Source: an uncultured Gammaproteobacteria bacterium (lineage in GTDB: Bacteria > Patescibacteriota > Patescibacteriia > JAHIZJ01). From it: a DNA stretch of 64,000 bases. A model generated the notes under the pieces. It did not search any database and was not told the DNA's origin. It was given only the letters and a program-made list of their open reading frames with translations. A program made the position numbers and the translations under genes. Within the stretch, counting starts at the first letter, position 1; each line of letters opens with the position of its first letter. The stretch lies in contig CAZQLY010000003.1 of assembly GCA_964594455.1 (NCBI GenBank), forward strand, positions 37,360 through 101,359. Reading direction: 5' to 3'. Shown piece after piece: positions 1 through 53,794 of this stretch.

Positions 1-1
1 C

Positions 2-634
2 CAAGAATTCAGCTTTTTGAGAACTTGGAGGTCGGATAATATTTATCGTTCAGGTTATTTATTAAAGGACTTATTTTGTGAAGTGGCCAGACGAGCTGGT
101 TTTTCTGAAGACTATTTAGCCTATCTTACCTATGATGAGCTTTTAATAATGGCGCGGAGCGGGCGGCCTTCAATTTCCATGAATGAGGTATTGAAAAGGT
201 TGGAATTCTTTGCTTTATGGCATCATCGTGGATATTACCATGTTTTGTCCGGCCGGAACTGGAAAAAACTGTTAGAACCAATTTTTCTTGAAAAGCAAAA
301 AAGGGTTAATCAAATCACAGGCACTCCGGCTCATAAAGGAATCGCCACAGGTAAAGCCAGGCTGATTATGACACCAAACGATTTGGTCAAAATGCGTCGG
401 GGGGAAATTCTAATAACAGTAATGACTTTCCCTCATTTCATTTCAGCTATGGAAAAGGCTAAGGCTTTTGTTACTGATGAGGGGGGAATTCTTTGCCACG
501 CAGCCATTGTCTCACGGGAAATGAAAAAGCCTTGTGTTATTGGCACTAAGAACGCCACTCAGATATTTAAAGATGGTGATTATTTGGAGGTTGACGCTAA
601 TCGGGGTATAGTGAAAAAAATTGAAAAAAAATAA
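2..634 (+). CDS. PEP-utilising-enzyme mobile (phosphohistidine swivel) domain protein, 5'-truncated by the window edge
   Basis: The frame is open from position 2 with no stop before the TTG at 17. The C-terminal ~90 aa follow the swivel-domain pattern (GTPAHKGIATGKARLI...GGILCHAAIVSREMKKPCVIGT...GDYLEVDANRGIV) shared with the downstream paralogs. Confidence 0.6.
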   Translation, partial: QEFSFLRTWRSDNIYRSGYLLKDLFCEVARRAGFSEDYLAYLTYDELLIMARSGRPSISMNEVLKRLEFFALWHHRGYYHVLSGRNWKKLLEPIFLEKQKRVNQITGTPAHKGIATGKARLIMTPNDLVKMRRGEILITVMTFPHFISAMEKAKAFVTDEGGILCHAAIVSREMKKPCVIGTKNATQIFKDGDYLEVDANRGIVKKIEKK

Positions 635-637
635 TTT

Positions 638-2005
638 ATGCCGGATCTTCTAAAGAATAAAAAAGCAACCACCCTTCATTCATCTGCGAAGAAAAAATTC
701 ATTACTTTTGGTAGCCGAGAAACATGCTTGATCCGAGATGAACCCTGGTTTACCTGGTTGGCTAGAAACGGCGTTGAGTTCATTGATCTTCCGAATGGCC
801 GTATTTATGATTATTACGTTAGTGAAAAAGATTATCACCAGGCTTTAGAAAAACTAAGGATCAAGATGGCCCGTAATTGGAGCCAGCATTTAATAAAATA
901 TCATAAAAAGAAACGGGCGGTTATTAAAACCGCTTGTGATTTAAGGTTATCTGTAAAGTCTGGTAACAGGTCCGGAATATTAGACAGGCACAATAAATAC
1001 TTCCAGGCGGCTTATGATTTTAATGAATACATGTGGGGTGCTTGGGCGGTTATTTATCGAGTTGAGCCTGATGTGATGCAAGAAATACCCGAGGAAATTG
1101 GATTAATTGCCAAGCTAGATCAGCCAATCAATTTTATGAAAATGCAGCGTGATGTATTTTGTTTGCCGGCTAATAAATGGCTCCAGGAATATCAGTGGTT
1201 GAAGATGTATAATCCGTACGATCCGGTTTATACGAAAAAAGATTATTTAAAATTTAGAAAAACCTTAAAACGATCTGAGCTGAAAAAGCAATTTAAGGAA
1301 TTGGCAAAAACCAAGACGGATTTTGATAAGCTGATAAGACAAATCAAAAACCGCAGCTTGAAGCAGAAGATGCTGATGATTCACGTTTACGCCTGGCTAA
1401 AAACAGATCGGATTGATGTTTGGCGTAAGTCAATATTTGAATTAAGAGACTTTTATCAATATTTGGCGCAAGAGCTGCCTGGAGCCTCTTTGCGTGATGC
1501 CTGTAATTTGAGCTGCCAGGAAATTCGTGAGTTACTAAACAAAAAAAGGGCTGTATCAGCCAAAGAATTGAAAAAAAGGAGTAAAAATAGTGCGCTGTAT
1601 TATGCTCAAGGCAATAGGTTGAGTATTTTGTATAGTAATGAGAAAATTAGAAAGATAACTAAACAGCTGACTACTCAGGCGTATTCGGAAAACATTACCG
1701 GGGTTTGTGCCAGCCCGGGTTGGGCGGTTGGAAAAGTAAGCATTATTTCTCATTCATCTGATTTACGTAAAGTAAAAAATGGAGATGTGTTTGTCGCCAA
1801 ATATACTTTCCCGACCTATCTGCCAGCTATGGCCAAATGTTCAGCTATTGTTACGGATGACGGTGGGATGACTTCGCACGCTGCCATAGTTGCGCGCGAG
1901 TTAAAAATACCCTGTGTTGTTGGAACCAAGAATGCCACACGGCTGTTAAAGGATAAGGATAGAGTTGAGGTTAAGGCGACAAAAGGTCTAGTGAAAAAGA
2001 GATAA
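638..2005 (+). CDS. PEP-utiliser swivel-domain protein paralog with a divergent N-terminal region
   Basis: 455-aa ORF. The C-terminus reads GGMTSHAAIVARELKIPCVVGTKNATRLLKDKDRVEVKATKGLV, a phosphohistidine-domain signature with the catalytic His retained. The N-terminal ~330 aa are not recognisable by eye. Confidence 0.6.
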   Translation: MPDLLKNKKATTLHSSAKKKFITFGSRETCLIRDEPWFTWLARNGVEFIDLPNGRIYDYYVSEKDYHQALEKLRIKMARNWSQHLIKYHKKKRAVIKTACDLRLSVKSGNRSGILDRHNKYFQAAYDFNEYMWGAWAVIYRVEPDVMQEIPEEIGLIAKLDQPINFMKMQRDVFCLPANKWLQEYQWLKMYNPYDPVYTKKDYLKFRKTLKRSELKKQFKELAKTKTDFDKLIRQIKNRSLKQKMLMIHVYAWLKTDRIDVWRKSIFELRDFYQYLAQELPGASLRDACNLSCQEIRELLNKKRAVSAKELKKRSKNSALYYAQGNRLSILYSNEKIRKITKQLTTQAYSENITGVCASPGWAVGKVSIISHSSDLRKVKNGDVFVAKYTFPTYLPAMAKCSAIVTDDGGMTSHAAIVARELKIPCVVGTKNATRLLKDKDRVEVKATKGLVKKR

Positions 2006-2073
2006 GAACAGTCAGCGGGCCTTCCAGGCTCGCTTTTAGGTAGTTTTTGCATAATTTATGCTATAATTAGCCT

Positions 2074-3606
2074 ATGTCTGGATTAAAGATAATACCAAAA
2101 AGCGACCGACTGCAATGGGGTTCGATGCCGGCTGTGCCATACTTTATTATGCTGGTGGCTTGGGCAGTCATCGGTCGGGCACAAAAGAGATTTAAAAGCA
2201 GCTGGCCGCACGGGCAGGAGCTTTTTTACGATAAGGAATTTGGCGTTTGGTTTAGCTATATGTCCGAAGTTGAGAAGAGCGGTATGAAAGCGGCTAAAAA
2301 GTTTTATCATCATCCTAAACGATTGCGATTGCTAAAAAAAGAATATGCAGCCTGCTTAAAGGTTATCCAGGAAGCGCGTAAATTTGTTCATCAATATTCT
2401 TTACGCAAATTTTCCTATGACGAATTGTTGGATTTGTACCGAACTTTTGTGGATGTGTATGAAAGACTTTGGACAGTAACGATTCAGTCAGAGATTACCG
2501 GTTATGGATTGAATGGATTTTTTACTAGAGAAATCCCAAAACATTTCCCACCCGACCAAGTAGCTGAGGTTTTGTCAATTCTATCAACCAGCGATGACCT
2601 TTCTTTTTATCAAAAAGAGGAGATAGATTTTTATTCTATATTAAAATCACTTAAGCCTAGTAGTTCTGTTTTAAAGAACGATAAAAATTTCCGCAATTGG
2701 CTCAAGAAAAAACATCCTCAGGTTAATTACAAGTTGCAGCAACACGCCAAAGAATACAGCTGGTTGATGAACAACTATAAACGCGGCCAGCCTTTGCCAG
2801 AATCATATTTTTACTCCAGAGCCAGACATGTGTTATCTGAAAACAAGCATTTGGACGAAGAGATTCGTGCTATAAAGAAACAATTTAGGCTGTCATTGAA
2901 CAAAAAGCGTGCCTTGATAAAAAAAGTCCAAGCCGGACTTTTGAAATTTTATGCCCAAAAGGTGATAGGCGATGCTATCGCCTGGCAGGATGACCGCAAG
3001 GGCTGGCAGATGCGAGCTCAAGAAGTGATTTATCGTTTTCTTCAGGAGTTTTCTCGCCGCAAAAAGGTCAGTTTAGATAAATGGTATTATCTTACGCCAA
3101 AAGAAACCTGGGCAGTGCTGGTGGGAGCGCTTCGATTTCCGCATCGAGACGTCAAAGCCAGGCAAAAAAGAATGTTAGTCGTTGTAGATTATAATGATTA
3201 CAGAATTTTTACCGGCCGGGTGGCAGAAAAGTTTTATCGCATTTATCGAACTAACTATAAGAGCGACAAGGACCGTGAAGTAAAAGGAATAGTGGGCTCA
3301 CGCGGCCAGCCGGGCATTTTACGGGCCAAGGTTCAAATATTGCACAGCCCGTCTCAAGTAAAAACTTTCAAAAAAGGTAGGGTGTTGGTGGCCGAATTAA
3401 CCAGCCCGGATTATATTGGTGCGATTCGAAAAGCCAGTGCCATTGTTACAGACCACGGCGGCCTAACTTCACACGCTGCCGTGGTAGCGCGGGAGTTCAA
3501 TATCCCCTGCATAGTTGGTACGAAAAATGCCACTCAGGCTTTTTCCAGCGGCGATTTAATAGAAATTGATTCAAATACTGGTGTTGTTAGAAGGGTTAAA
3601 AAATGA
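2074..3606 (+). CDS. PEP-utiliser swivel-domain protein paralog
   Basis: 510-aa ORF. The C-terminus reads GGLTSHAAVVAREFNIPCIVGTKNATQAFSSGDLIEIDSNTGVV. The stop overlaps the next start (ATGA at 3603). Confidence 0.6.
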   Translation: MSGLKIIPKSDRLQWGSMPAVPYFIMLVAWAVIGRAQKRFKSSWPHGQELFYDKEFGVWFSYMSEVEKSGMKAAKKFYHHPKRLRLLKKEYAACLKVIQEARKFVHQYSLRKFSYDELLDLYRTFVDVYERLWTVTIQSEITGYGLNGFFTREIPKHFPPDQVAEVLSILSTSDDLSFYQKEEIDFYSILKSLKPSSSVLKNDKNFRNWLKKKHPQVNYKLQQHAKEYSWLMNNYKRGQPLPESYFYSRARHVLSENKHLDEEIRAIKKQFRLSLNKKRALIKKVQAGLLKFYAQKVIGDAIAWQDDRKGWQMRAQEVIYRFLQEFSRRKKVSLDKWYYLTPKETWAVLVGALRFPHRDVKARQKRMLVVVDYNDYRIFTGRVAEKFYRIYRTNYKSDKDREVKGIVGSRGQPGILRAKVQILHSPSQVKTFKKGRVLVAELTSPDYIGAIRKASAIVTDHGGLTSHAAVVAREFNIPCIVGTKNATQAFSSGDLIEIDSNTGVVRRVKK

Positions 3607-4682
3607 AAAAAGCAAAGCAACGCCATCCTTATCATATGTTCACCAGAGATTTTTCTCTTTTTACTTCCGAGCTTTGGTATTGGCTGGTGACAGAATCAAT
3701 GCGGGCTGATATCGGCTTTAGTTTAAGTGATCAGATAGTAAATTATGACGGCCGGTCAGCTCAATGCTTTAGATTAAAGGAAGATATGGATGATTTTAAA
3801 AAGCTGGTTATTAATCTCCCAGACTATCATCGGCTTTTCAGCGAAGAAAGTCACCTCGAGTTCCGCTCGATCCTAAAAGAAATAAAAAGGCTGATTGCAA
3901 TCAAGCCCAGAGAGCCTTTTACTTTTAACCCAATTCAAAAGGTAATTCAGCATTGGGAAAAAATATGGGCTATGTTTGTTATTGCTTTTAATTTACCGTC
4001 TGGCTGGGCTGAAGATATCAAGAAGAAAAAAGGTGCCCGAGCGAAAAGAATAATCAATGATTATTATCAGGATCGTGTTTCATCTGAAGGCGCATTTGAA
4101 TTAATGGATGCAACAATTCGAGAATATATCGAACAGTTGTTTAAAAAACACCACATTCCAACCAGGTATTCGCATCTGATAGGTTTTACTGAATTCATGG
4201 ATTTAATGGAATTAGGCATTAAGCCTCCATTAAGCGTTTTGCAGGCCAGGAGTAAGGGTTATGTAACTATTAAAGGCAAGATATATACTGGGAAAGACTT
4301 TGCTGAGCTTTTGAAAAAACATGGCTATATTTATTCCAGAAAAGATGTAAATAAAAACATCAAAGCGTTTGAGGGATTAGCAGCTTACTCATCGGGTATT
4401 GTCAGAGGCAGGGTTAGCCTAGTTTTCAATATTCAGGACATGAAGAAGTTTATAAAAGGAAAAATCATGGTCTCACCGGAAACTTCACCGGTTTTTCTAC
4501 CCGCCATGAAAAAAGCCAAAGCAATAATTACAGATGAAGGTGGTATCACATCCCATGCTTCAATAGCCTCGAGAGAATTCAAAATACCCTGTATTGTCGG
4601 CACTAAGATTGCCACAAAAGCACTAAAGAACGACCAGCAAATAGAAATAGACACTAAAAACGGAATAATCAAAATTATATGA
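3603..4682 (+). CDS. PEP-utiliser swivel-domain protein paralog
   Basis: 359-aa ORF. The C-terminus reads GGITSHASIASREFKIPCIVGTKIATKALKNDQQIEIDTKNGII. It is translationally coupled to both neighbours (overlapping stop and start). Confidence 0.6.
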   Translation: MKKAKQRHPYHMFTRDFSLFTSELWYWLVTESMRADIGFSLSDQIVNYDGRSAQCFRLKEDMDDFKKLVINLPDYHRLFSEESHLEFRSILKEIKRLIAIKPREPFTFNPIQKVIQHWEKIWAMFVIAFNLPSGWAEDIKKKKGARAKRIINDYYQDRVSSEGAFELMDATIREYIEQLFKKHHIPTRYSHLIGFTEFMDLMELGIKPPLSVLQARSKGYVTIKGKIYTGKDFAELLKKHGYIYSRKDVNKNIKAFEGLAAYSSGIVRGRVSLVFNIQDMKKFIKGKIMVSPETSPVFLPAMKKAKAIITDEGGITSHASIASREFKIPCIVGTKIATKALKNDQQIEIDTKNGIIKII

Positions 4683-6109
4683 AATGGACATTTATTGGAA
4701 CCAGAAGAGTAGCAGTACAAGTGGCCGAAGCCTGGTGTTATGGCTGGGGGCAGGCTATGAAAAAAGTTTACGGTGTTTATATTAATTCAACTTTGATATA
4801 CCGTGATGAGAAAAAAACTGATATTTTTGCTGATGCCAAAGATTATAAAAGGTTTTATTCCGGATTGCTAACATTGTTGCAAGATGAAAGATTTGTAAAA
4901 GACTTCCATCCCCAAGCCCAAAAGAGGTTAGAAGAACTTTATTCAGAAATGAAGAAAATTTTAGCAGTTGATTTAAAGAAATTAACCGACAAGCAGTTAC
5001 TAAAGTTGTTTGAGAAAGAAATATTGCCCAGACAAACTCAGTTCTACGTTCGGATGTGGACAGTGTATCAAATCGGTGAACCAATGACTGAAACGATGTC
5101 TAATATTTTGAGAAAAAAATTGAATGACGGAGCACGCGTCACAGAGTTATTGGTTAAATTAGCTGAACCTTTAAGTTTTAACGACGCTATCAGTAATCGT
5201 TATGAGCTTTTGAAGTTAGCAGTTGATGCCAATAAACTTAAACCAGCCGAGTTGGATATGAAATTAAAGCTTCATGCTAAGAAGTTCCAGCATATCCCAG
5301 TATATGATATTGATCATGATCCTTATACTTACGATCATTTCAAACAAGAGTTGAAGGAAATAAAAGACGCGGCCAAGGAACTGAAAAAACTGGAATCAGA
5401 AATAGATCGCAGAAAAAAAGAACACAAAAAGATAATCAGTGAATTAAAGCCCGATCGAAAGTTCTTGGCTCTCATTAACTTTATCAAAGAGAACTCTTTT
5501 CTTCGTGATTACCGTGATTCAATTAGGCAGAAGCTTAACCTGGAATTAAAAAAGTACTATGAGGAATTGGCTGATCGGATGAAGATTACATTAGAAGAAG
5601 TAATAACGTTAGTAAACAGTGAAATAATTGAGTATTTTGGTCAAAACAAAAGATTCCCCCAGGAAGAATTAAATCGCCGCAAGAAATCGTTTTTTCTGAT
5701 AGTGCGAGGAGAAAAAATAAAAATATTGTCTGGAAACGAAGCCTTAAAAAAAGCCGAGCTGGAATTGGGATTAAACAAAGCTTCCAGCAACCAATTGCTC
5801 AGAGGAGTGATAGGCTCAAAAGGTAAGGCAAAAGGTGTAGTCAAAATAGTATACACCAACCGTGATTTAGATAAGGTAAAAGAGGGAGAAATTTTAGTGT
5901 CTAGTATGACTCGACAAGATTTTGTTCCAGCAATGCGCCGAGCTGGGGCTATAGTAACTGACGAGGGCGGAGTAACGTGCCATGCAGCCATTGTTGCCCG
6001 GGAATTAGAAACCCCTTGCGTTATCGGTACCAAAATCGCAACCAAAGTCTTAAAAGATGGCGATCAAGTGGAAGTAGATGCGAATAAAGGAATTGTTAAA
6101 AAGATCTAA
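4679..6109 (+). CDS. PEP-utiliser swivel-domain protein paralog
   Basis: 476-aa ORF. The C-terminus reads GGVTCHAAIVARELETPCVIGTKIATKVLKDGDQVEVDANKGIV. Confidence 0.6.
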   Translation: MKWTFIGTRRVAVQVAEAWCYGWGQAMKKVYGVYINSTLIYRDEKKTDIFADAKDYKRFYSGLLTLLQDERFVKDFHPQAQKRLEELYSEMKKILAVDLKKLTDKQLLKLFEKEILPRQTQFYVRMWTVYQIGEPMTETMSNILRKKLNDGARVTELLVKLAEPLSFNDAISNRYELLKLAVDANKLKPAELDMKLKLHAKKFQHIPVYDIDHDPYTYDHFKQELKEIKDAAKELKKLESEIDRRKKEHKKIISELKPDRKFLALINFIKENSFLRDYRDSIRQKLNLELKKYYEELADRMKITLEEVITLVNSEIIEYFGQNKRFPQEELNRRKKSFFLIVRGEKIKILSGNEALKKAELELGLNKASSNQLLRGVIGSKGKAKGVVKIVYTNRDLDKVKEGEILVSSMTRQDFVPAMRRAGAIVTDEGGVTCHAAIVARELETPCVIGTKIATKVLKDGDQVEVDANKGIVKKI

Positions 6110-6245
6110 ATAATAAATAAATGTTAAAAACCCCAAAACAATTAAACGACAGAACAAAACCTTATACGTTTGGGATTTAGCTGGTACACTTTTTAATGAA
6201 AAATGGAATAATAAGCTCACGGGTTTTGATAGTTTTGATGAATGG

Positions 6246-6791
6246 GTGGAAAACAAACTTGGGAAGAAAATATCTGAAATGTCAGATTATGAATACGAAC
6301 GTGGTTACGAAACACCTTATAAGAAAGGCGCAATGTTTAATTTAAAAACTGTAGATGGATTTAGAGAAGTGCTTGATAAGACGCATAATAACGAGGCTTT
6401 TTCTAGCGGTAATCCAGAACAGCTTCTATGTCGGGCTAAGTACTTAAATCCGAAAATTGGCTTCAATCTGCTTAAATATTTCCTAGCCATAAACTCACCT
6501 TTTGACTATGGAACAAGCAATAAGAAAACAGCAGAAGTATATAAAAAATATCTGTTAAAAAAATACAAACAGGGATATCGGACTATTATTTATACAGAAG
6601 ATAAAGCTAAATACATTAGCTCGTTTAAAAAAGCCGCTGCCAATGTTAAAATCAAACACCCAAATTTTAATTATCACATTTATCATATATTAAGAAACAA
6701 AAAAGGCATTAAAAGAAAAAATGGCTATTTTGAAATTGGTAATTTGTGGGATTTACTAAAAAACGAAAAGAAGTTGAATAATATCATATGA
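6246..6791 (+). CDS. hypothetical protein; the annotated GTG start is doubtful and there may be an upstream extension through a frameshift (HAD-like DLAGTL motif upstream)
   Basis: 181-aa ORF. The same frame stays open and coding-like back to about 6117 (..KTLYVWDLAGTLFNEKWNN..) but has no start codon there. An ATG at 6121 lies in the +1 frame (MLKTPKQLNDRTKPYTFGI*), and the two frames meet at a GGG run at 6170-6172. Confidence 0.4.
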   Translation: MENKLGKKISEMSDYEYERGYETPYKKGAMFNLKTVDGFREVLDKTHNNEAFSSGNPEQLLCRAKYLNPKIGFNLLKYFLAINSPFDYGTSNKKTAEVYKKYLLKKYKQGYRTIIYTEDKAKYISSFKKAAANVKIKHPNFNYHIYHILRNKKGIKRKNGYFEIGNLWDLLKNEKKLNNII

Positions 6792-7543
6792 ATAATTTAG
6801 CAATTAAAAAACAAAAAACTGTTAAATTTGGATTAGCCGAGTGGTTTCTGACAGGTGGTATGCTTTTTGCCGTTTTGGTATCTTATTTAATATTCAGCGT
6901 ACCAACAATTTCCGATTTTATCGAAATAGTATGGGATAAGGTTGTGGAATATAGTTATGATTTAGGGTATCTGGGGGCATTCTTTATGTCTTGGTTAGGC
7001 AATTCCACGATTGTAATCCCTTTTCCTTATACGGCGTTGGTATTTTTATTCGGAGCTAGCGGCTTAAACCCAATGGCTCTAGGAATACTGGCAGGTGTAG
7101 GCGCAACGTTGGGCGAGTCGATTTCCTATATTGTTGGGTTCTTGGGTTATAAAGTTACTAAGGACAAATATAGGAAAAACATGAGCGCCTTGAGGAAATT
7201 AATAGACACCAGACCAAAGTTTGCCATATTTTTCTTTTTTCTAATCGGCGCCACCCCAATTCCCGATGATGTATTCATAATTCCGTTGGGATTGATTCGC
7301 TATAATGTTTTCAGGGCGATTATTCCATTTGCTATAGGTAAAATAGTTTTGACTTCAATAATCGCCTACATGGGATATTTTGCTGGTGATGCCACTACTA
7401 TCGGATTTCTAGAGGACCAAAGGGAATGGGTCAACGTCATGTCGCTGGTTGGAGTTATTATAGTAATTTACGCAATATTGAAGATTAATTGGGAAAAGTT
7501 AAGCGAGCGATTAATAAAAGATACGGGTTCACAACAATCATGA
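6788..7543 (+). CDS. DedA/SNARE-associated (TVP38/TMEM64) family membrane protein
   Basis: 251-aa multi-TM protein with the characteristic ..GATPIPDDVFIIPLGLIRY.. region. Its start overlaps the upstream stop. Confidence 0.5.
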   Translation: MNNLAIKKQKTVKFGLAEWFLTGGMLFAVLVSYLIFSVPTISDFIEIVWDKVVEYSYDLGYLGAFFMSWLGNSTIVIPFPYTALVFLFGASGLNPMALGILAGVGATLGESISYIVGFLGYKVTKDKYRKNMSALRKLIDTRPKFAIFFFFLIGATPIPDDVFIIPLGLIRYNVFRAIIPFAIGKIVLTSIIAYMGYFAGDATTIGFLEDQREWVNVMSLVGVIIVIYAILKINWEKLSERLIKDTGSQQS

Positions 7544-8127
7544 CGATCTACCAGGGGTTAAAAATAATTGACCAAGCAAAATTACCCCATCCCGAATGGC
7601 AGTTCGTTAGGACTTCAAAAGATATTAAAAATTTAAATAAGGTCAAAGACTATTGCGGTTGGACGATCAGAACAGCCAAGGTGGATGGAGCGCCTTGGCA
7701 GAACCTATACGTGAATTGGTTGCCCAAGAAAAAGGTTTCAGTCAAAGTAGATGAGCTTCAGGCTCAACATCCGGGCCGGGCCATGTTTGTAATTTACCCT
7801 TCCTGGGAATGGAAGAAAGGTGGCACTATTTTGGTAGAAAAGGAGCGAGTTGTCATAAAGGCCACCCGAGGTGAAATCGTGAATTTAATGCGCTACGGCA
7901 AAATAAGTGCCAGCTACGTTTTTCAAAAAGGGAAATTGGTTGAGGTAAACGGTGATAAGAATTTTTTATCTGTTTCAGAGATAAAAAAAGTTATTCAAGC
8001 CCAAGAACGTATTAAGAAAAAAAACGTGATTTTGGAATGGGGCATTACGACTCAGAATAAATTCATATTTTACCGCATAGAAGACTTAAAAGAAGCAGCT
8101 AAGTTATTAATTGAGAAATATTCATGA
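7540..8127 (+). CDS. hypothetical protein, possibly a minimal ATP-grasp-like partner of the downstream swivel-domain gene
   Basis: The probable start is the ATG at 7540, which overlaps the upstream stop (ATGA). Its own stop overlaps the next start at 8124. A weak resemblance of GGTILVEKERVVIKATRGEIVNLMRYGKISASYVF to an ATP-grasp lid is by eye only. Confidence 0.35.
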   Translation: MTIYQGLKIIDQAKLPHPEWQFVRTSKDIKNLNKVKDYCGWTIRTAKVDGAPWQNLYVNWLPKKKVSVKVDELQAQHPGRAMFVIYPSWEWKKGGTILVEKERVVIKATRGEIVNLMRYGKISASYVFQKGKLVEVNGDKNFLSVSEIKKVIQAQERIKKKNVILEWGITTQNKFIFYRIEDLKEAAKLLIEKYS

Positions 8128-9596
8128 TAGTAAAATTTCGAAGCATTAACTGGGTCTACGAATGGGAGAGGTCGATTAATTTTTACCACGGTCATTTGAT
8201 AGCCCGTTTGTGGAACCAGCATAGTCTAGAGCGCTGGCCGACAAATTTTTATTGGCCCAAGAGAAGACAATACTTGTTGTTAAATAAAAGGGATACTGGT
8301 TTTGCCTACGTTGATATAAAAGAGGTGAATCGACTTTCGGATAATTATTTGGACAAAATTACAAAGAAAGATATTGCCGGACGATATGTGAAACAGGCAG
8401 ACACTCTAGTTCGAAGCGTCATCCGATTTGTCTCCCAGCACAAAAAAGCTGATCTGAAAAAGATGGATCGAAAAGATTTTCTTAAGTTATTTGGTGATTA
8501 TTTCTATTACTATTTTTCATTGACTGGCCTGGTAGGGGAAATCCGAACTGTCAACTGGACCGGCATTGAAGTCCTTAAGAGTAAAATTAAAAGAAGTTTT
8601 AATAATGACAGACAGCTTCAGAAAGCAGTGAATATTCTGACGGCTACACCGCGCGAAAGCTTTTTAAACAAATCGGAAAAAGATTTTGTAAAAACACTAG
8701 AAAAAATAAAGAACAATCCTAACCAAAGCCAGAAACTGACAACCGACTATTGGATGAAATATCGGTGGTTTCCTTGTGGCTTTAAAGATGAAGCTCCATT
8801 AACATATCTAGAAACCAAGAAGAAAATAACTAAAGGTTTAAGAGAATATAAGCAGTTGTGCAAAAAAATTAAGCAGGATGAAAAGTTCAGGGCTAATTTG
8901 AAAAAGCAAAGAACCGCGTTATTAAAAAAGATCAAGCCGGATCTGGGAACTAAAAGAATAATTGATTTTTTATCCCAGTCCACTTACTATAAGGATTTTA
9001 CCCGCTTTATGATTAATCGTTGGGGTCACTATGAAATGATCCCAGTTATGAAAGAAGCTGCTAAGCGTCTCGGCATATCATATAAACAGTTGGGTTATTT
9101 AAGTTTTGAAGAAATAGCCGATGGCCTTAGGGGCGAAGCTGTTCCCAGAACTGAAATAAGAAAAAGGCAGCTAGCTTGGGCTTGCGTGGTCATAAACGAT
9201 AGATTTAGGGTGTTGTCTGGTAGTCAGGCCGTTAAGTTAATCGGGACTTTTGATAAAGCAACGACAAGGATAAAAGAATTAAGCGGCGCTACAGCAAATC
9301 CAGGTAAAGCATCAGGCGAAGTGGTAATTGTCAGGAATCTGAGGGATGCCCGTAAAGCAAAAACGCAGGGCAAGATTTTTGTTACCACTATGACTACGCC
9401 CGAGCTAATGCCCTATCTGAGGAATGTCAAAGCTATAATTACAGACGAGGGTGGAATTACTTGCCACGCTGCTATTGTTTCAAGAGAGTTGGGTATTCCA
9501 TGCGTGATTGGGACTGCGCAAGGAACTAGAGTTCTAAAGAATGGTGATCGAGTAGAGGTTAATGCAACGGATGGTGTTGTGAAAAAAATTAAATAA
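8124..9596 (+). CDS. PEP-utiliser swivel-domain protein paralog
   Basis: 490-aa ORF. The C-terminus reads GGITCHAAIVSRELGIPCVIGTAQGTRVLKNGDRVEVNATDGVV. Confidence 0.6.
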   Translation: MIVKFRSINWVYEWERSINFYHGHLIARLWNQHSLERWPTNFYWPKRRQYLLLNKRDTGFAYVDIKEVNRLSDNYLDKITKKDIAGRYVKQADTLVRSVIRFVSQHKKADLKKMDRKDFLKLFGDYFYYYFSLTGLVGEIRTVNWTGIEVLKSKIKRSFNNDRQLQKAVNILTATPRESFLNKSEKDFVKTLEKIKNNPNQSQKLTTDYWMKYRWFPCGFKDEAPLTYLETKKKITKGLREYKQLCKKIKQDEKFRANLKKQRTALLKKIKPDLGTKRIIDFLSQSTYYKDFTRFMINRWGHYEMIPVMKEAAKRLGISYKQLGYLSFEEIADGLRGEAVPRTEIRKRQLAWACVVINDRFRVLSGSQAVKLIGTFDKATTRIKELSGATANPGKASGEVVIVRNLRDARKAKTQGKIFVTTMTTPELMPYLRNVKAIITDEGGITCHAAIVSRELGIPCVIGTAQGTRVLKNGDRVEVNATDGVVKKIK

Positions 9597-9696
9597 AGCA
9601 CCTCGTTTGTGGCATCCCGAACTTGTTTAAGGATCTCGCAGAGAACTAGATTTTTCATTGAGATACTGAAATAAATTAACCATGACAGTTTGTTGT

Positions 9697-9737
9697 AAAA
9701 AAAGAGCCGGCGGTTCCACTAATGGAACACGCCGGCT
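9697..9737 (-). terminator. rho-independent terminator for the minus-strand gene ending at 9769
   Basis: A 13-bp GC-rich hairpin (AGCCGGCGGTTCC-ACTAAT-GGAACaCGCCGGCT) is followed on the minus strand by a T-run (complement of AAAAAAAG at 9697-9704). Confidence 0.6.
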
Positions 9738-9768
9738 TTGGGGTGGCGGGAGCGACCGCTTGGACAGG

Positions 9769-10383
9769 CTAGCCTTCGGGGTAGCCCTGGAAGACGACCT
9801 GCGACTCGAGCAGCCGAGTCTCAAACGTCTCAGTGTCAACTTCGACGACGTACTCGACAATCCCGGCCAAGCCGAGACGGTGAGTGATGCTGGGATCCAG
9901 CACAGCCGTCTCGCTGCAGGGCGAATGGCTACTGACCAGGACATCGAGTCCGGTCTCGTCGTACTGGGAAGCCAGGATGCAGACCCACTTGAAAAGGCAC
10001 TCGCGGAAGCGAGCGGACATCTGCCGCGTCGGCGGATGGACAGCGAACCAGAGACCCATGGTCTCAGGAGTGCCGGCGGCCACGATAGCCTGGATGCGCT
10101 TGAGAGCTTCAATCATCGGAGCGTCCGGATTCTCAGCGTAGAGATAGCCGAACCCCGGATCCTTCCTGGTCGTGAGGCTCTTGAGGCCCAGGGCCTGCAG
10201 AGCAGTGCGGTTGGTCTGGAATGCCCGGTACATGTCCGAACAAAGACCGAGTACGAACTCAATACCAGCGAAATAGCGGCGTGAGGATTCAGCGACTTGC
10301 TTCTCGCCCCTGGGCGTCAACTCGTCACCATCCTTCTCGCCATGCCGCTGCACCTTGAAACGAACAACCATTTTCTTCCCCAT
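9769..10383 (-). CDS. histidine phosphatase superfamily (phosphoglycerate mutase-like) protein
   Basis: The N-terminus VVRFKVQRHGEKDGDELTPRGEKQ carries the RHG catalytic motif. The gene sits in a GC-rich island. Confidence 0.5.
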   Translation of the reverse strand: MGKKMVVRFKVQRHGEKDGDELTPRGEKQVAESSRRYFAGIEFVLGLCSDMYRAFQTNRTALQALGLKSLTTRKDPGFGYLYAENPDAPMIEALKRIQAIVAAGTPETMGLWFAVHPPTRQMSARFRECLFKWVCILASQYDETGLDVLVSSHSPCSETAVLDPSITHRLGLAGIVEYVVEVDTETFETRLLESQVVFQGYPEG

Positions 10384-10464
10384 CAGAAATCCCCTCCTGT
10401 TTCGGTCCTAGGTTATAGCCCAAGGGCGGTTAACTTCTCCCTTGTTTTCTCAAAAGAACCGTGT

Positions 10465-10493
10465 ATATTAGCACAGTTTTGGGGCGTTGTCAA
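10465..10493 (-). promoter_or_regulatory. sigma70-type promoter (TTGACA-N17-TAATAT) on the minus strand
   Basis: The minus strand reads TTGACAacgccccaaaactgtgcTAATAT, which is a perfect -35, a 17-nt spacer and a near-consensus -10. It lies upstream of the histidine-phosphatase gene. Confidence 0.55.
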
Positions 10494-10504
10494 GGGGTAA
10501 ATAA

Positions 10505-10535
10505 AAAGACGAGATTGGCTTATCTCGTCAAAAAT
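10505..10535 (-). terminator. rho-independent terminator for the gene 10540..11052
   Basis: A perfect 8-bp stem GACGAGAT-TGGCTT-ATCTCGTC is followed on the minus strand by TTTTTATTT. Confidence 0.55.
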
Positions 10536-10539
10536 GGGC

Positions 10540-11052
10540 TTATGAATCCGGTTTTTCTTCGCCCCAACTGCGCGACCCGGAGCCACCGATTAGGCCGATA
10601 TACCAGGTATCGCTGTTGAAACCCAACTGGAGATCAGCTTCGGGTAGCGGGATTCGGGGCAGGAAACTGGGTAGGGTGTTGTTTAGCACCCGGAAAAGGC
10701 TGTACTGTATCCCGAAATCCAGTTCCGTACCAGACTCGTTCATGAATCTGAGACCCAGCCCTCCAAATACACTGAGCGACTTCATGACTGGTACGTAGCC
10801 GTAGCCACCGATCAGACCCTCGGTTTCGTCTGCCCAGGATCCAACCGAGACAAAAGGCCCGATCTGAGCCCGTGAAACGTTGAGTAAGTAGTGCAGCTGA
10901 CCCATAAGCAGCATGGCATCACTACCCTCTTCGTTCTCGGTAATTCCGACGTAGGCCCTGGCACCAAAGTTCTCCGGCGCCTTGGACCAAACCGAAGACG
11001 GAACAGCCAGCCAGATTGCTAGCACCACACCAATAACAAGCATCCTTTTCAT
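10540..11052 (-). CDS. secreted beta-rich protein resembling an outer-membrane beta-barrel (OMP_b-brl/OmpW-like) domain
   Basis: A signal peptide (MKRMLVIGVVLAIWLAVPSSVWS) is followed by alternating hydrophobic and Gly/Tyr-rich beta-strand-like segments. The gene is GC-rich relative to its flanks. Confidence 0.35.
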   Translation of the reverse strand: MKRMLVIGVVLAIWLAVPSSVWSKAPENFGARAYVGITENEEGSDAMLLMGQLHYLLNVSRAQIGPFVSVGSWADETEGLIGGYGYVPVMKSLSVFGGLGLRFMNESGTELDFGIQYSLFRVLNNTLPSFLPRIPLPEADLQLGFNSDTWYIGLIGGSGSRSWGEEKPDS

Positions 11053-11144
11053 AGCCTGGAAACCTCCCTGCGGATGTGAATGGTTAAAGAACAGCTGATA
11101 ATCGTATCATATGATATCTTAAAGCGCAAAAGACTATTAGATTG

Positions 11145-11174
11145 TTGTAAAACCAGGCCTCAATATGATATAAT
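11145..11174 (+). promoter_or_regulatory. promoter with an extended -10 (TGaTATAAT) upstream of secD
   Basis: TTGTAA at 11145-11150, an 18-nt spacer and TG-n-TATAAT at 11166-11174. The start codon lies only ~9 nt downstream and there is no Shine-Dalgarno sequence, so the mRNA may be leaderless or nearly so. Confidence 0.4.
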
Positions 11175-11182
11175 GCCTTGGT

Positions 11183-12850
11183 ATGACCCCACGTAAAAAG
11201 GTTTGGATAACGTTTATTTTTATAGTGATTCTGGCTGGATTAGCCGGGATTGTTGACTATCCCAAAGGACCGGACATAAAGATTAATGATTATTCCAAAG
11301 AATTAAAGGTTCATTTGGGGCTTGATTTGCAGGGTGGGTCCCATTTGGTTTATGAGGCTGATGTCTCAAATATTCCTGAAGCTGACCGTTCTTCATCGTT
11401 GGATGGAGTACGTGATGTAATCGAAAGGCGGGTCAATGCTTTTGGAGTATCGGAACCAGTGGTTCAAACAAACAAAGTAGGAGATAGCTGGCGGGTAATA
11501 GTGGAGTTGGCCGGCGTTTTTGATATAAACGAAGCAATCAAGCAAATTGGTGAGACGCCGCTTTTGGAATTCCGAGAGCAGGCCGAACCTGAGCCTTATA
11601 CCGAAGAGCAATTAGCTGCCATTCGTGCTTTGAACGAAGAAGCCAAGAATAAAGCTCAAGGAATACTTGAGCAAGCATTGCAGCCTGATGCTGATTTTGC
11701 CGCCTTAGCCCAGGAGAATTCAGAAGATACCGGTAGCGCCGAAAACGGCGGTGACTTAGACTTCTTTCCCCGAGGAGTAATGATAACAGAATTTGAAAAT
11801 GTCGTGTTTGATGAGATGCAAGTGGGCGAAGTATATCCGGAATTAGTCCAGACAGATTTTGGATATCATATTATTAAAAAAACAGACGAACGTGAAACAG
11901 GCGAAGGTGATGGCAAGTTGTTGGAAGCCCGGGCGAGCCACATATTAATCCGAACTCAGTCTGAAGAACCTACGGCCTCCACGCAGTTTGTGAATACTGA
12001 TTTGTCAGGCAAGCAGTTAACGCGAGCCGATGTCCAATTTGATCCCAATACTGGAGCTCCAGAAGTAACCCTGAAATTTGATGATGAGGGCAAGAATTTG
12101 TTTGCTGAAATTACCAAGAAAAATGTTGGAAAAATAGTAGCCATTTATCTTGACGGTACGCCTATCAGTCAGCCGGTGGTTCAGGATGAAATAACGTCTG
12201 GTGAAGCAGTTATTTCAGGATCCTTTACCTTGGAAGAGGCTAAAACCCTTGCCCAGCGTTTGAACTCCGGTGCCCTACCAGTACCCATTACCTTAATAAA
12301 CCAGCAGAATGTCGGTGCATCATTGGGTAAAGTTTCCGTAGAGAAGAGTTTATTTGCGGGCTTAATCGGGTTATTCTTTGTGGCTATATTTATGATCGTT
12401 TATTATCGTTTGCCTGGTATTTTGTCGGTTGTTGCCTTGGCAATGTATGCCTTGGTAGTATTAGCAATTTTCAAAATTTGGCCGATTACTTTAACCCTGG
12501 CGGGCGTGGCAGGATTTATCTTGTCAGTGGGAATGGCAGTTGATGCTAACGTCCTTATTTTTGAAAGGATCAAAGAGGAATTAGCCCTGGGCAAGCCTCT
12601 GGGCAGCGCTATTGAAGAAGGGTTTAAACGGGCTTGGCTTTCGATTCGCGATTCCAATGTTTCCAGTTTGATAACTTGCTTTATTCTGATGTGGTTCGGT
12701 AGCAGCTTGATCAAGGGCTTTGCTGTTACTTTAGGCCTCGGTATTATCGTCAGTATGTTTTCAGCAATTACTATAACCCGAACTTTCCTGAGGCTGATAG
12801 CCAGTGAATGGCTAGCTAAGCATTTAGGCTGGATGGGAGTAAAAAGATAA
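11183..12850 (+). CDS. secD: protein translocase subunit SecD with an embedded PpiC-type (parvulin) peptidyl-prolyl isomerase domain
   Basis: The N-terminal TM helix plus LDLQGGSHLVYEAD, and the C-terminal 6-TM region, are SecD-like. Residues ~150-240 (..ALAQENSEDTGSAENGGDLDFFPRGVMITEFENVVFDEMQVGEVYPELVQTDFGYHIIKK..) match the parvulin rotamase signature. Confidence 0.75.
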   Translation: MTPRKKVWITFIFIVILAGLAGIVDYPKGPDIKINDYSKELKVHLGLDLQGGSHLVYEADVSNIPEADRSSSLDGVRDVIERRVNAFGVSEPVVQTNKVGDSWRVIVELAGVFDINEAIKQIGETPLLEFREQAEPEPYTEEQLAAIRALNEEAKNKAQGILEQALQPDADFAALAQENSEDTGSAENGGDLDFFPRGVMITEFENVVFDEMQVGEVYPELVQTDFGYHIIKKTDERETGEGDGKLLEARASHILIRTQSEEPTASTQFVNTDLSGKQLTRADVQFDPNTGAPEVTLKFDDEGKNLFAEITKKNVGKIVAIYLDGTPISQPVVQDEITSGEAVISGSFTLEEAKTLAQRLNSGALPVPITLINQQNVGASLGKVSVEKSLFAGLIGLFFVAIFMIVYYRLPGILSVVALAMYALVVLAIFKIWPITLTLAGVAGFILSVGMAVDANVLIFERIKEELALGKPLGSAIEEGFKRAWLSIRDSNVSSLITCFILMWFGSSLIKGFAVTLGLGIIVSMFSAITITRTFLRLIASEWLAKHLGWMGVKR

Positions 12851-13743
12851 TGTATAGAATAATCCAAAGAAGAAATATCTGGTTTATCCTGTCGGCCCTG
12901 GTCGTCATCCCGAGCATTGTGTTTATTATTATGGGTGGATTGAAGTTAAATATTGATTTTACTGGTGGCACTCTTTGGAAAATTAAATTTACCGAGGAAC
13001 GTCCTGTCATCCAAGATTTAGAAGGGGAATTAGAACAATACGATCTGGGAGATTTGACGGTTCAGACAACAAACGACATGGGTATGGTGATTAGGTTGAA
13101 ACCTATTGATAACGAATTAAGGCAAAATATTCTCAGCGGTCTGGATGAAACTTATTCAGGCGTTGAAGAGGAAAGCTTTGAGTCAATCGGGCCAACTATT
13201 GGCGAAGAGCTTAAACGTAAGGCCCTGGTGGCGATTATCCTAGTTTTAATTTTCATCATCTTATATATCACTTGGGCATTTAGAAAGATATCAAAATCTT
13301 CAGCTATTCCCAGCTGGATGATGGGGCTCTCAGCTATTATTGCTTTAGCCCATGATATAATCATCGTTGTAGGAGTTTTCGCTTTCCTGGGTTTTACCCA
13401 GGATGTTGAAATCGGCGCGCTGTTTGTAACCGCCTTACTGACAATTTTAGGGTTTTCCGTACATGACACAATCGTTGTGTTTGATAGAGTAAGAGAAAAT
13501 ATTATCCAAGGCTCAGATAACGATTTTGAACAAACCATAAATCGTAGTGTCAATCAGACAATTATTCGATCGCTCAATACTTCGCTTACTACGCTGTTCG
13601 TATTGTTGGCGTTGTATCTGTTTGGTGGCGAGTCAATCAAGATGTTTGTTTTGGCGATGATATTTGGTATTATCACAGGAACATATTCATCGATATTTGT
13701 AGCCAGTCCGTTATTAGTCGTTTGGCGTAAATTGAAACAATAG
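12850..13743 (+). CDS. secF: protein translocase subunit SecF
   Basis: The start overlaps the secD stop. A 297-aa protein with the SecF TM pattern (..FTGGTLWKIKF.. then a 6-TM domain). Confidence 0.75.
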   Translation: MYRIIQRRNIWFILSALVVIPSIVFIIMGGLKLNIDFTGGTLWKIKFTEERPVIQDLEGELEQYDLGDLTVQTTNDMGMVIRLKPIDNELRQNILSGLDETYSGVEEESFESIGPTIGEELKRKALVAIILVLIFIILYITWAFRKISKSSAIPSWMMGLSAIIALAHDIIIVVGVFAFLGFTQDVEIGALFVTALLTILGFSVHDTIVVFDRVRENIIQGSDNDFEQTINRSVNQTIIRSLNTSLTTLFVLLALYLFGGESIKMFVLAMIFGIITGTYSSIFVASPLLVVWRKLKQ

Positions 13744-15092: not shown

Positions 15093-16556
15093 ATGCCAAT
15101 TGTTATTGATATAACTGGACTTTCTGTCTCAGGGCCGTTTATGCCATTTATTCAACTTTGGCGTTTTTTTGTAGATGGAGGCTGGATAGTTGTTGTAGCT
15201 TCGTTTTTGCTTATACTTTGGGAGTACCGAATGCTGCGTTTGAAGAAAAGGTATATAGATTCTACTAAATTTATTTTGTTGGCTATTGATGTACCGCGTG
15301 AAGTAGAGCCAAACTTAAAAGCTATTGAGCATATTTATTCTCAGTTTGCGGGAATTTACAGTACCCCCAACTTTATTGAAAAGTATGTTAAAGGACAGGT
15401 ACAGTTATACATTAGCTTAGAGCTTGTTAGTATTGGTGGCTATATTCAATTTATTATACGTACCCCGGAAAAATATCGAGATTTAGTGGAGTCGGCTTTT
15501 TATGCTCAATATCCGGAAGCTGAAATAACAGAGGTCGAAGACTATACTAAAGATATACCGAATAAATTTCCAAATGATAAATACGAACTCCTAGGTTCTG
15601 GAATCTCGTTTAATAAACCAAACCCTTATCCAATAAAAACTTACGTGGCGTTTGAACACAGCCTGTCTCAGCAGTTAGCTGATCCGATGGCTGGACTTTT
15701 GGAGATATTAAGTAAGCTGAAACAGGGTGAGCAAATGTGGATTCAAATGGTTATCAGGCCAAAAGGCAAAGAAGAATGGGTGAACGAAGCCAAACAGATT
15801 GTAAATAAGATTATTGGAGAAAAGAAAGATGCCAAACCGATGTTTGGTGCTGTTGGGGCCATTACTAAAGGCACCTATGAGACAGTCACTGCTTCATTGT
15901 TTGAACCTGCGGCTGAAGAAAAAGCCCAGCCTAACCAGCCAAAAAATTGGATGATGCAGTTAACTCCGGGCGAAAAGGCAACTGTGGAAGCTATCCAGAT
16001 GAAGGTGGCAAAAAAAGCCTACGAAACAAAATTTCGCTATGTTTACGTGGCTGAGAAAGAACTAGTCAACAAAGGATTAGGTATCAATGCTTTTTTTGGG
16101 GCACTCAATCAATTTACAGCCATTGATTTAAACAGCTTCAGGCCTGACAGTCGAACGTTTACTAAAACTAACTATATCTTATTCAAGAAAATGCGCTTTA
16201 GTTTAAAACAGAGACAGTTGATCAAAAACTATAAAGATAGACAACCTGGCAAAGGGATAGTCCTAAACACTGAAGAGTTAGCGAGTGTATTTCATTTCCC
16301 AACCCTGACAGTTAAAGCTCCTCTGGTTAGGAAAATAGATAGTAAGAGAGGAGAACCGCCTACCAGCTTACCTATTGAAGGCGTCGATAATCCAATTAAG
16401 CCCGTAAATAGAGTACCCCAGATTGTTCCCGAGGCTCCGGCTAAACCATCTGTTCCGCCAGCTGGGACCAAACCTGCTTCACGTTCCGCTCAGCCTGAAA
16501 CAAAAGAACCTCCTACTATAAAAAAACAAGCCCCACCCAACTTACCTTTTGAATAA
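15093..16556 (+). CDS. membrane protein (N-terminal TM helices, Pro-rich C-terminal tail), possible partner of the downstream ATPase
   Basis: 487-aa protein with N-terminal hydrophobic helices and a C-terminal ..PEAPAKPSVPPAGTKPASRSAQPETKEPPTIKKQAPP.. tail. Its stop overlaps the next start by 8 nt. Confidence 0.45.
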   Translation: MPIVIDITGLSVSGPFMPFIQLWRFFVDGGWIVVVASFLLILWEYRMLRLKKRYIDSTKFILLAIDVPREVEPNLKAIEHIYSQFAGIYSTPNFIEKYVKGQVQLYISLELVSIGGYIQFIIRTPEKYRDLVESAFYAQYPEAEITEVEDYTKDIPNKFPNDKYELLGSGISFNKPNPYPIKTYVAFEHSLSQQLADPMAGLLEILSKLKQGEQMWIQMVIRPKGKEEWVNEAKQIVNKIIGEKKDAKPMFGAVGAITKGTYETVTASLFEPAAEEKAQPNQPKNWMMQLTPGEKATVEAIQMKVAKKAYETKFRYVYVAEKELVNKGLGINAFFGALNQFTAIDLNSFRPDSRTFTKTNYILFKKMRFSLKQRQLIKNYKDRQPGKGIVLNTEELASVFHFPTLTVKAPLVRKIDSKRGEPPTSLPIEGVDNPIKPVNRVPQIVPEAPAKPSVPPAGTKPASRSAQPETKEPPTIKKQAPPNLPFE

Positions 16557-25044: not shown

Positions 25045-25068
25045 GACGATCTCGCTCCTGAAGTTTGA

Positions 25069-25107
25069 GGCGGGACCCACGCGGCATTTGTCGTAACGGG
25101 TCCCGCC
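25069..25107 (+). promoter_or_regulatory. intergenic GC-rich hairpin (10-12 bp stem) with no T-run
   Basis: GGCGGGACCC-(19 nt)-GGGTCCCGCC lies between the two island genes and immediately before AAAGGAG-ATG. It may be a processing or attenuation structure. Confidence 0.35.
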
Positions 25108-25130
25108 CTCATCAACCAAAGGAGTGAATC

Positions 25131-27686: not shown

Positions 27687-27763
27687 TGGTGACAGGGGTG
27701 GGAATCGAACCCACGACCTAGGGCTTATGAGTCCCTCGCTCTAACCAACTGAGCTACCCTGCC
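27687..27763 (-). tRNA. tRNA with CAT anticodon (elongator Met or lysidine-modified Ile2); CCA encoded
   Basis: Minus-strand cloverleaf GGCAGGG-TA-GCTC-AGTTGGTTA-GAGC...CTCATAA...GTGGG-TTCGATT-CCCAC-CCCTGTC-A-CCA. Position 1 pairs G1:C72, so it is not an initiator. Confidence 0.8.
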
Positions 27764-28097: not shown

Positions 28098-28117
28098 CCT
28101 TCGCTAGCGCGAAGGAT
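28096..28117 (-). promoter_or_regulatory. perfect 9-bp hairpin (ATCCTTCGC-TAGC-GCGAAGGAT) directly abutting the tRNA 3' end
   Basis: It has no T-run. The hairpin includes the GAAGGAT Shine-Dalgarno-like element and the first ATG of the GIY-YIG ORF, and may be a processing or translational-control structure. Confidence 0.4.
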
Positions 28118-28192
28118 GGTTGCGGGGCCCGGACTCGAACCGGGAACCTCAAGGTTATGAGCCTTGCGAGCTACCAATTGCTCCACCCCGCG
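28117..28192 (-). tRNA. initiator tRNA-fMet (CAT), CCA encoded
   Basis: Minus-strand cloverleaf CGCGGGG-TG-GAGC-AATTGGTA-GCTC-G-CAAGG-CTCATAA-CCTTG-AGGTT-CCCGG-TTCGAGT-CCGGG-CCCCGCA-A-CCA. The C1:A72 mismatch is typical of bacterial initiators. Confidence 0.8.
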
Positions 28193-53753: not shown

Positions 53754-53794
53754 ATGAGAAATTGACCCTGAAAAACAAAAATCAAAATTTAAAA

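Follow-up and report, generated by a model that had tools for sequence, protein, structure and literature searches.

Tandem arrays of putative dikinase subunits in Patescibacteria: rifampin phosphotransferase-like substrate domains joined to phosphohistidine swivels, with a 195-residue ATP-grasp protein as candidate partner

Rifampin phosphotransferase (Rph) combines in one polypeptide an ATP-grasp domain (residues 1-314), a rifampin-binding domain (327-754) and a swivel domain (767-865), and distant clades of the family have probably changed their substrate (Stogios et al., 2016, PMC4844700; PDB 5hv1, 5fbs). In the two-component systems HpeHI, CreHI and PpsAB, the H/A component is the counterpart of the rifampin-binding and swivel domains of Rph, and I/B that of the ATP-grasp domain; neither component is dispensable, a conserved His is essential in HpeH, and HpeH, CreH and PpsA are about 45% identical to one another (Dexter et al., 2025, PMC12167813). 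A related locus is described here from a 64-kb stretch of DNA (the window; contig CAZQLY010000003.1, positions 37,360 to 101,359, assembly GCA_964594455.1), at the start of which lie six tandem genes, named A to F in their order along the plus strand. With a probability of about 0.6, these genes encode the substrate-binding and phosphohistidine-carrier (H/A-type, below H-type) subunits of split two-component small-molecule dikinases of the Rph superfamily, charged by a stand-alone ATP-grasp protein, in this locus most likely a small one of 195 amino acids (aa), the mini-grasp.

Compared by description, the window proteins are built like HpeH, with a substrate-binding domain and a swivel His and without an ATP-grasp; in Rph the ATP-grasp is fused at the N-terminus, whereas the window proteins begin at the substrate domain. 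The locus differs from HpeHI, CreHI and PpsAB in having six or more H-type genes instead of one, and in its ATP-grasp of 195 aa without a PF01326 match (theirs have about 330-340 aa). The swivel keeps a phosphoenolpyruvate (PEP) synthase-type GGxT[SC]HAA motif with Thr, no carboxylase or other aromatic-catabolism gene was identified among the annotated neighbours, and the organisms that carry these genes are Patescibacteria and DPANN archaea, whose genomes measure about 1 Mb. The matches to NCBIfam PRK08296-type models, given below, suggest a subfamily different from that of HpeH, CreH and PpsA. PEP synthase and PPDK are likewise related through the swivel, which is closest in sequence to that of PEP synthases, and through the presumed dikinase chemistry (ATP to AMP and Pi via phospho-His), but the window proteins have neither their TIM barrel (PF02896) nor a fused PPDK_N domain (PF01326), and the swivel is C-terminal and not central. 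The prodigiosin-type ligases PigC, RedH and HapC belong to the same Rph-like three-domain superfamily, and matches to NF052631, the PigC model of NCBIfam, extend past the swivel in both F (residues 241-487) and B (303-453); these ligases differ in that one chain of about 880 aa includes the ATP-grasp, and in acting in pigment biosynthesis clusters. The literature searched contained no description of H-type arrays or of the mini-grasp, and nothing linking PF00391/PEP-utiliser arrays to the Candidate Phyla Radiation or DPANN.

An earlier note on this DNA, made from the letters alone, had listed six plus-strand open reading frames (ORFs), and all of them are present: A at 2-634 (its 5' end cut by the window start), B at 638-2005 (455 aa), C at 2074-3606 (510 aa), D at 3603-4682 (359 aa, a short form), E at 4679-6109 (476 aa) and F at 8124-9596 (490 aa). 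The genes are not strictly consecutive, as had been stated, because three others (6117/6246-6791, 6788-7543 and 7540-8127) intervene between E and F. Translational coupling through ATGA start/stop overlaps, also claimed there, was found at 3603 (C-D) and 4679 (D-E), and further overlaps occur at 6788, 7540 and 8124. A scan of positions 1-11200 for promoters and terminators was uninformative on operon structure, with sites no more frequent than in shuffled sequence. The Logan contig L023 (3.5 kb), found via D, repeats D and the sequence on either side of it without a difference, and brings nothing from upstream of position 1.

The C-terminal module was confirmed by the Pfam search to be the PEP-utiliser phosphohistidine swivel domain that the earlier note had recognized. 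PF00391 was found at the C-terminus of all six proteins with 81.6-91.3 bits (gathering cut-off 23.1) and E values between 3e-23 (D) and 2.8e-26 (C), those of A and E being 8.4e-24 and 4e-25. The swivel is encoded at approximately 314-622 in A, 1694-1999 in B, 3292-3600 in C, 4374-4679 in D, 5798-6106 in E and 9279-9593 in F. The His of the GGxx[SC]HA loop, which had been said to be retained in every copy, was located in all six (codons 497-499, 1877-1879, 3472-3474, 4554-4556, 5981-5983 and 9465-9467, from A to F); that of F, His448, is invariant across an alignment of 88 sequences. The last 105 residues of the paralogs are 36-57% identical to one another by BLASTP, and the swivel part matches the fold of solved phosphohistidine domains. 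The nearest swivel sequences are those of PEP synthases (8a8e, E 1.4e-24 for F and 2.8e-54 for the family profile). NCBIfam PRK08296-type models, which are named 'hypothetical protein', have about 570-630 positions and are presumably related to PpsA, find their matches mostly in the swivel.

The N-terminal regions had been regarded as not alignable with one another by eye, and as differing substrate or partner modules. They proved to be homologous to each other, so that of the claim that the copies share only the C-terminal module, the sharing of that module stands and its exclusiveness does not. When the last 105 aa were trimmed, collinear BLASTP matches were obtained between E and F (2.5e-11), B and E (4e-8), C and F (3e-7) and C and E (8e-5), the detectable N-terminal alignments having 20-29% identity against the 36-57% of the swivels. 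A profile of the N-terminal region was also built from 83 homologues and no window sequence, to avoid circularity, with a nominal database size of one million. It scored 296 bits with F, 204 with E, 193 with C, 68 with B and 61 with the partial A (61.5 for its pre-swivel part), while shuffled sequences reached at most 7.8 bits. By these alignments and scores, five of the six proteins share one N-terminal domain. The exception is D, with a non-significant 7.2 bits; its N-terminal region has no Pfam match, shows no clear kinship with short forms of other arrays and has just two homologues in 5.8 billion proteins. The orthologues of D are 88% and 52% identical to it.

The shared N-terminal domain is homologous to the rifampin-binding, that is, substrate, domain of Rph, D again excepted. 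In B, C, E and F the matches to NCBIfam Rph-like models continue far into the sequence that precedes the swivel; with phmmer, residues 179-487 of F align with 545-864 of the Listeria rifampin phosphotransferase (Rph-Lm, 5fbs), and the family profile aligns with Rph-Lm 453-866 (E 5e-37). The AlphaFold model of F, made from the 88-sequence alignment, was confident (predicted local distance difference test, pLDDT, 93.9; predicted template modelling score, pTM, 0.90), being helical over residues 65-350 and followed by the swivel. Rph is its only full-length structural match, and the rifampin-binding-domain fold is thus present as the substrate-binding domain of F (residues 1 to about 385); B, C and E have a helical substrate domain of the same kind before the swivel. 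Nothing in these data favours rifampin itself as the substrate, the identity to Rph-Lm being 14%. The earlier note was right in its general idea that these proteins combine a common swivel His domain with substrate modules that differ.

In Rph, Arg666, Glu667 and Lys670 position the phospho-His and the phosphate of the product, and mutants of Arg666 or Glu667 show no rifampin inactivation (PMC4844700). These residues (block 9) align with family columns of the form [K/Q/H/R]-[D/E]-x-R-[K/R], where an acidic residue is found in 77 of the 88 sequences and K or R occupies the Arg position in 46. The catalytic pair is thus partly conserved. F has K-D-F-T-R at these columns, E has R-D-Y-R-D and C has Q-D-D-R-K; in B the motif is K-T-D-R-I, shifted, with a register that may be off by one. 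The alternative offered in the earlier note, that the N-terminal regions are extremely divergent ATP-grasp domains, was rejected on account of the Rph alignments, the helical model of F and the block 9 motif. It is contradicted for F by the predicted structure and for A, B, C and E by homology; no observation spoke in its favour, and it can be considered extremely improbable.

The earlier note had seen neither an ATP-grasp nor a PEP-binding TIM barrel in the six proteins, and the Pfam search agreed: PPDK_N and PEP-utilizers_C (PF02896) were found neither in them nor in the other 30 window ORFs scanned (about 180 aa or more). The matches to NCBIfam models of PEP synthase (106-137 bits, cut-off 598) and Rph were all partial and far under the curated cut-offs. 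Such partial matches would be expected of decaying fragments of PEP synthase or Rph that have lost their ATP-grasp, that is, of truncated pps-like pseudogenes. This explanation is contradicted by the intact ORFs, by confident models (pLDDT about 94), by syntenic orthologues at 41-55% identity in distant genomes, and by the recurrence of this ATP-grasp-less architecture in Patescibacteria and DPANN archaea, where it was seen in well over a hundred of the homologues inspected, out of more than 5,000 matches. The ratio of nonsynonymous to synonymous substitutions (dN/dS), low in both domains, argues against it as well, and this explanation is very improbable.

For this ratio, orthologues and not pairs of paralogs were used, because synonymous sites are saturated at 36-57% identity or less. 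The contig L026, from a close relative, holds orthologues of A to D at 80-86% identity, that of C being at 80%. By the Nei-Gojobori method (NG86), overall dN/dS against these was 0.07-0.09 for B, C and D (C 0.071, D 0.080), with 0.06-0.11 in the N-terminal part and 0.02-0.14 in the swivel; for A, dS was estimable for the swivel alone, with a dN/dS of 0.03. As dS in these comparisons was 0.85-1.7, the ratios are approximate. Window paralogs C to F are closer to genes in other genomes than to their own array mates: two neighbouring genes of L024/L025 share 51% and 55% identity with C and D, respectively, L019:3658-5124 shares 43% with E, and L022:9989-11500 shares 41% with F. A search of positions 1-9700 for DNA repeats returned short chance matches only and no sign of recent duplication or gene conversion. 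Therefore, the description of the copies as hyper-divergent does not apply in the sense of fast evolution. As far as these comparisons reach, they are old, distinct and conserved subfamilies under purifying selection, and neither pseudogenes nor duplicates that diverge rapidly.

In L026 (region 4612-6370), D is succeeded by a different H-type paralog, 29% identical to E, and then by another H-type gene. Since the first of these is not an orthologue of E, array content turns over between close relatives, in what looks like a cassette-like manner.

The earlier reading had overlooked an ATP-grasp protein. It is encoded separately, in the gap between E and F, at 7540-8127 on the plus strand, ATGA-coupled to the preceding VTT gene and to F. 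The best 50 Foldseek matches of this 195-aa protein are all ATP-grasp enzymes (E about 1e-6), so by its model it has an ATP-grasp fold and is proposed as the ATP-binding I/B component. The matched targets have 280-390 aa, from which the mini-grasp appears to be without the substrate-binding N-domain of ATP-grasp ligases; because of this it probably needs a partner. Forty close homologues are 45-67% identical to it, those with names all belonging to the Patescibacteria group or to unclassified bacteria, and among 1.8 billion proteins the family forms 111 clusters (50% identity), almost all of 185-210 aa.

Loci fetched via the mini-grasp family were scanned with local profiles over up to 10 kb per side. 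At eight of them the mini-grasp lies within or adjoins H-type arrays of 1-11 genes. In Ca. Nomurabacteria (L001, CP060223.1) three H-type genes lie upstream of it, and in L019 six; L006 has five upstream and four downstream, L008 two upstream plus a swivel-only gene, and L015, a short contig, one downstream. The mini-grasp of L010 is accompanied by 3 and 3 H-type genes, that of L016 by about 7 and 1, and that of L007 by 7 and 4, making 11 genes in 17 kb. As its position in the array varies between genomes, this linkage is not one inherited arrangement. Together with the ATGA coupling to F, it makes the mini-grasp a likely charger of the H-type proteins.

The reaction proposed would run as follows. 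A stand-alone ATP-grasp, for which the mini-grasp is the sole candidate in the window, would bind MgATP, and the swivel His of an H-type protein would accept the beta-phosphate of ATP, with AMP and Pi leaving. The swivel would then return to its own helical domain, the homologue of the rifampin-binding domain, where the conserved basic-acidic pair aligned to Arg666-Glu667 would position the phospho-His for transfer of the phosphate to a hydroxyl of the bound substrate. One ATP-grasp charger would serve several carriers that differ in their substrate domain, and we propose that sharing a charger would explain why the swivels stay alike while the N-terminal domains diverge. The domains and folds, the conserved His, the partly conserved pair, the gene linkage and the purifying selection are observed; catalysis of this kind, a one-to-many partnership and small molecules as acceptors are inferred.

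Several observations weigh against this proposal. The mini-grasp sequence has no match in Pfam, NCBIfam or the PDB, and hence no sequence-level match to PPDK_N; Foldseek ranks LysX, Ddl and PurK ahead of HpeI (rank 15) and Rph (ranks 28-33); and hhalign gave no significant alignment of its family with three canonical stand-alone PPDK_N proteins (E 0.16), although the segment aligned was the same as that matched by eye. At seven loci the mini-grasp stands in housekeeping contexts, with no H-type gene within the sequence seen (up to 10 kb per side). These contexts, assigned by eye from N-terminal sequences, are folA-tmk, ftsZ-nrdR-prfB-cysS and mraZ-rsmH, and most of the proteins concerned are more distant homologues (42-48% identity). 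H-type proteins are also far commoner, with their more than 5,000 matches against the 111 mini-grasp clusters, and no recognisable ATP-grasp was found in the 13 kb seen of an H-type array of Woesearchaeota (L020). Within the window itself, D is gapped across the block 9 columns and so has no catalytic block, and its N-terminal region of 254 aa matches no assigned domain. Finally, canonical stand-alone PPDK_N genes lie at the edge of arrays at L019:12096-13079, L022:19146-20087 (PF01326), L010:19891-20586 and L007:20322-20585, and their products could be the real charger. They encode 313-327 aa where complete, with the C-terminal end DIEWAIEKGNIYIVQSRPITTL, and are 1.5-10 kb from the arrays; in L007, L010 and L019 both they and the mini-grasp accompany one array.

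These genes are the ground for the main rival explanation, in which a canonical PPDK_N of about 315-330 aa (HpeI/PpsB-like), encoded elsewhere in the genome outside the window, would charge the H-type subunits and the mini-grasp would have a different function, such as that of a small ligase or kinase module. It agrees with the solo occurrence of the mini-grasp in housekeeping contexts and with the closeness of the swivels to those of PEP synthases, which are naturally paired with a canonical PPDK_N. By contrast, no such gene was found in the 64-kb window, where canonical PPDK_N sequences from related loci, used as BLASTP queries, gave no match among the ORFs of 70 aa or more. The start/stop coupling of the mini-grasp to F, its presence in or next to arrays at the eight other loci, a tighter linkage than that of the canonical gene, and its probable dependence on a partner also speak against this explanation, which we judge rather unlikely.

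A further possibility is that the H-type proteins work without any ATP-grasp, swapping phosphate between small molecules or receiving it from a donor such as PEP via an Enzyme-I-like protein, with HAD-like or histidine-phosphatase-like neighbours resetting them. HpeH alone is able to move phosphate from 4-phosphoacetophenone to acetovanillone (PMC12167813), many arrays (among them L020 and L024) show no nearby ATP-grasp, and HAD and RHG-motif proteins recur in or beside arrays. On the other side, net phosphorylation needs the ATP-grasp component in all characterised relatives (PMC12167813), PEP-utilizers_C was missing from the window ORFs scanned, and the linkage between mini-grasp and arrays would be left without explanation. 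This possibility is improbable, and charging by the mini-grasp remains the preferred reading.

The tandem arrangement, which had been called unusual, is not peculiar to the window. A comparison of copy number showed that H-type arrays of 3-11 copies recur in Patescibacteria. Among the loci fetched via H-type homologues, L024 has nine genes and L022 nine or ten, and the Woesearchaeota contig L020 holds eight H-type units, one of its genes being a fused double (1422-4295). This gene and other homologues of 750-960 aa (P0004, P0009, P0011, P0012, P0013 and P0021) consist of two complete helical plus swivel units joined head to tail, with the catalytic His motif in each, so tandem duplication also occurs inside single polypeptides.

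Additionally, some other genes were observed in these loci. The L022 array is interrupted midway, at 12163-13554, by three riboflavin-related genes (Flavokinase, Lum_binding, DMRL_synthase), and a gene with a weak HD domain lies between two of its H-type genes (3447-4049). IS200-type Y1 transposase-like genes occur beside the mini-grasp or inside arrays at L001:10631-11197, L024:9899-10201 and L007:9419-9982, and may contribute to array rearrangement; the L001 gene matches PF01797 clearly, that of L024 only faintly, and the L007 gene was called by eye from its N-terminal sequence. Two mini-grasp homologues were found on contigs labelled uncultured Gammaproteobacteria (L012) and Candidatus Rokubacteria (L013). 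Their neighbourhoods, with nrdR, prfB and cysS or folA and tmk identified by eye, are like those of the Patescibacteria loci L017, L014 and L011, and both contigs are probably mis-binned.

The remaining genes of the locus were also compared. The gene at 6788-7543 (plus strand), with an ATGA overlap at each end, encodes a membrane protein of the VTT/DedA family (PF09335, E 7.2e-9, 36.6 bits, cut-off 33.9), and a homologue 60% identical to it ends the H-type array of L024. The gene before it (6117/6246-6791, plus strand) is possibly HAD-like, with the motif VWDLAGTLF; Pfam gave nothing at E 0.01, the weak HAD_SAK_1 match having an E of 0.032. Its frame is open from 6117 and the first canonical start is a GTG at 6246, yet a conserved N-terminus, KTLYVWDLAGTLF, lies upstream of this GTG and matches MDEKILYIWDLAGTLF of a homologue in L022, which is 55% identical, covers the sequence upstream of 6246 as well and directly follows the orthologue of F. 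An ATG at about 6121 is in another frame, with a stop after 19 codons. Because of this, the sequence at 6117-6260 suggests either a 1-nucleotide frameshift in the ACAAAACC run, whether genuine or introduced by sequencing, or initiation at an unusual ATT codon.

Convergent with F, a gene of the histidine-phosphatase superfamily with an RHG motif lies on the minus strand at 9769-10383 (PF00300, E 5.3e-5, 23.4 bits, cut-off 21.7), and homologues about 40% identical to it stand beside the arrays of L024 and L001. In L010 and L019 the mini-grasp is start/stop-coupled to a gene of the HAD family, and the L006 array includes a further one. Proteins with an RHG, RHA or THG motif at the N-terminus are encoded beside arrays at L006:18888-19787(-), L010:15839-16750(-), L010:4231-5115, L019:2754-3668, L007:17374-18435 and L008:10987-11463(-). 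The three of these outside proteins that were checked had no Pfam match at E 0.01, and they are weakly interrelated, save those of L006 and L010:15839 (61% identical); they may be histidine phosphatases, perhaps with phospho-His as their target. The assignment of all array-side RHG-motif proteins to one histidine-phosphatase family was rejected, as clear relationship is confined to the copies in L001, L024 and the window, the last of which alone has Pfam support. Overall, the accessory genes suggest a theme of phosphorylation and dephosphorylation and pinpoint no substrate.

The rest of the window resembles a Patescibacteria chromosome, with genes for SecDF, ParAB, TopA, DprA, Mfd, Der and LytR, and the closest relatives of the locus genes are all in assemblies of the 'Patescibacteria group'. 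The G+C fraction rises to 0.49 at 9600-12000 and 0.54 at 24000-26000, against about 0.36-0.42 in the array. The first of these regions contains the histidine-phosphatase-like gene and a 170-aa protein with an apparent signal peptide (by eye), and long overlapping ORFs on both of its strands were taken to be composition artefacts. A gene for a type IV secretion coupling protein (TrwB/VirD4-like) at 16549-18201 adjoins an ORF of 487 aa without a Pfam match. Three tRNA genes with the anticodon CAT (27687-27763, 28117-28192 and 44362-44435) are probably those of the initiator, the elongator Met tRNA and the tRNA-Ile2 precursor. At 53744-63477, a surface-protein cluster encodes two proteins with a WxL domain, a third that combines WxL-interacting peptidoglycan-binding and LysM domains, a methyltransferase, and a product of 1496 aa without a Pfam match. 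Firmicutes are the group in which WxL systems are best known.

In Patescibacteria and DPANN archaea, whose genomes measure about 1 Mb, many biosynthetic pathways are missing. In some of them, tandem paralogs of one kinase subunit occupy 1-2% of the genome, and each paralog examined was under purifying selection. A broader proposal, which we advance tentatively as possible though doubtful, is that in ultra-small symbionts of the Patescibacteria, and perhaps of DPANN, a single 195-aa ATP-grasp loads 3-11 interchangeable swivel carriers, each with its own pocket, and that these could, together with phosphatase-like and DedA-type proteins, be a general system to capture, activate or detoxify small molecules or lipids derived from the host. 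Candidate roles would be to recover metabolites of the host, to resist its antibiotics (rifampin is inactivated by the nearest relative of solved structure) and to handle lipid carriers. A resistome survey counts 'rph' hits in genomes of the Candidate Phyla Radiation (PMC8651080), and caution is advisable in such surveys, where ATP-grasp-less proteins of the type described here match Rph and PEP-synthase models only in part. If the proposed charging by the mini-grasp is correct, it would be the smallest ATP-grasp partner seen for such enzymes, and the subfamily of two-component dikinases would extend well past aromatic catabolism. One minimal ATP-grasp with many carriers would then offer these organisms a compact and modular way to phosphorylate many different compounds.

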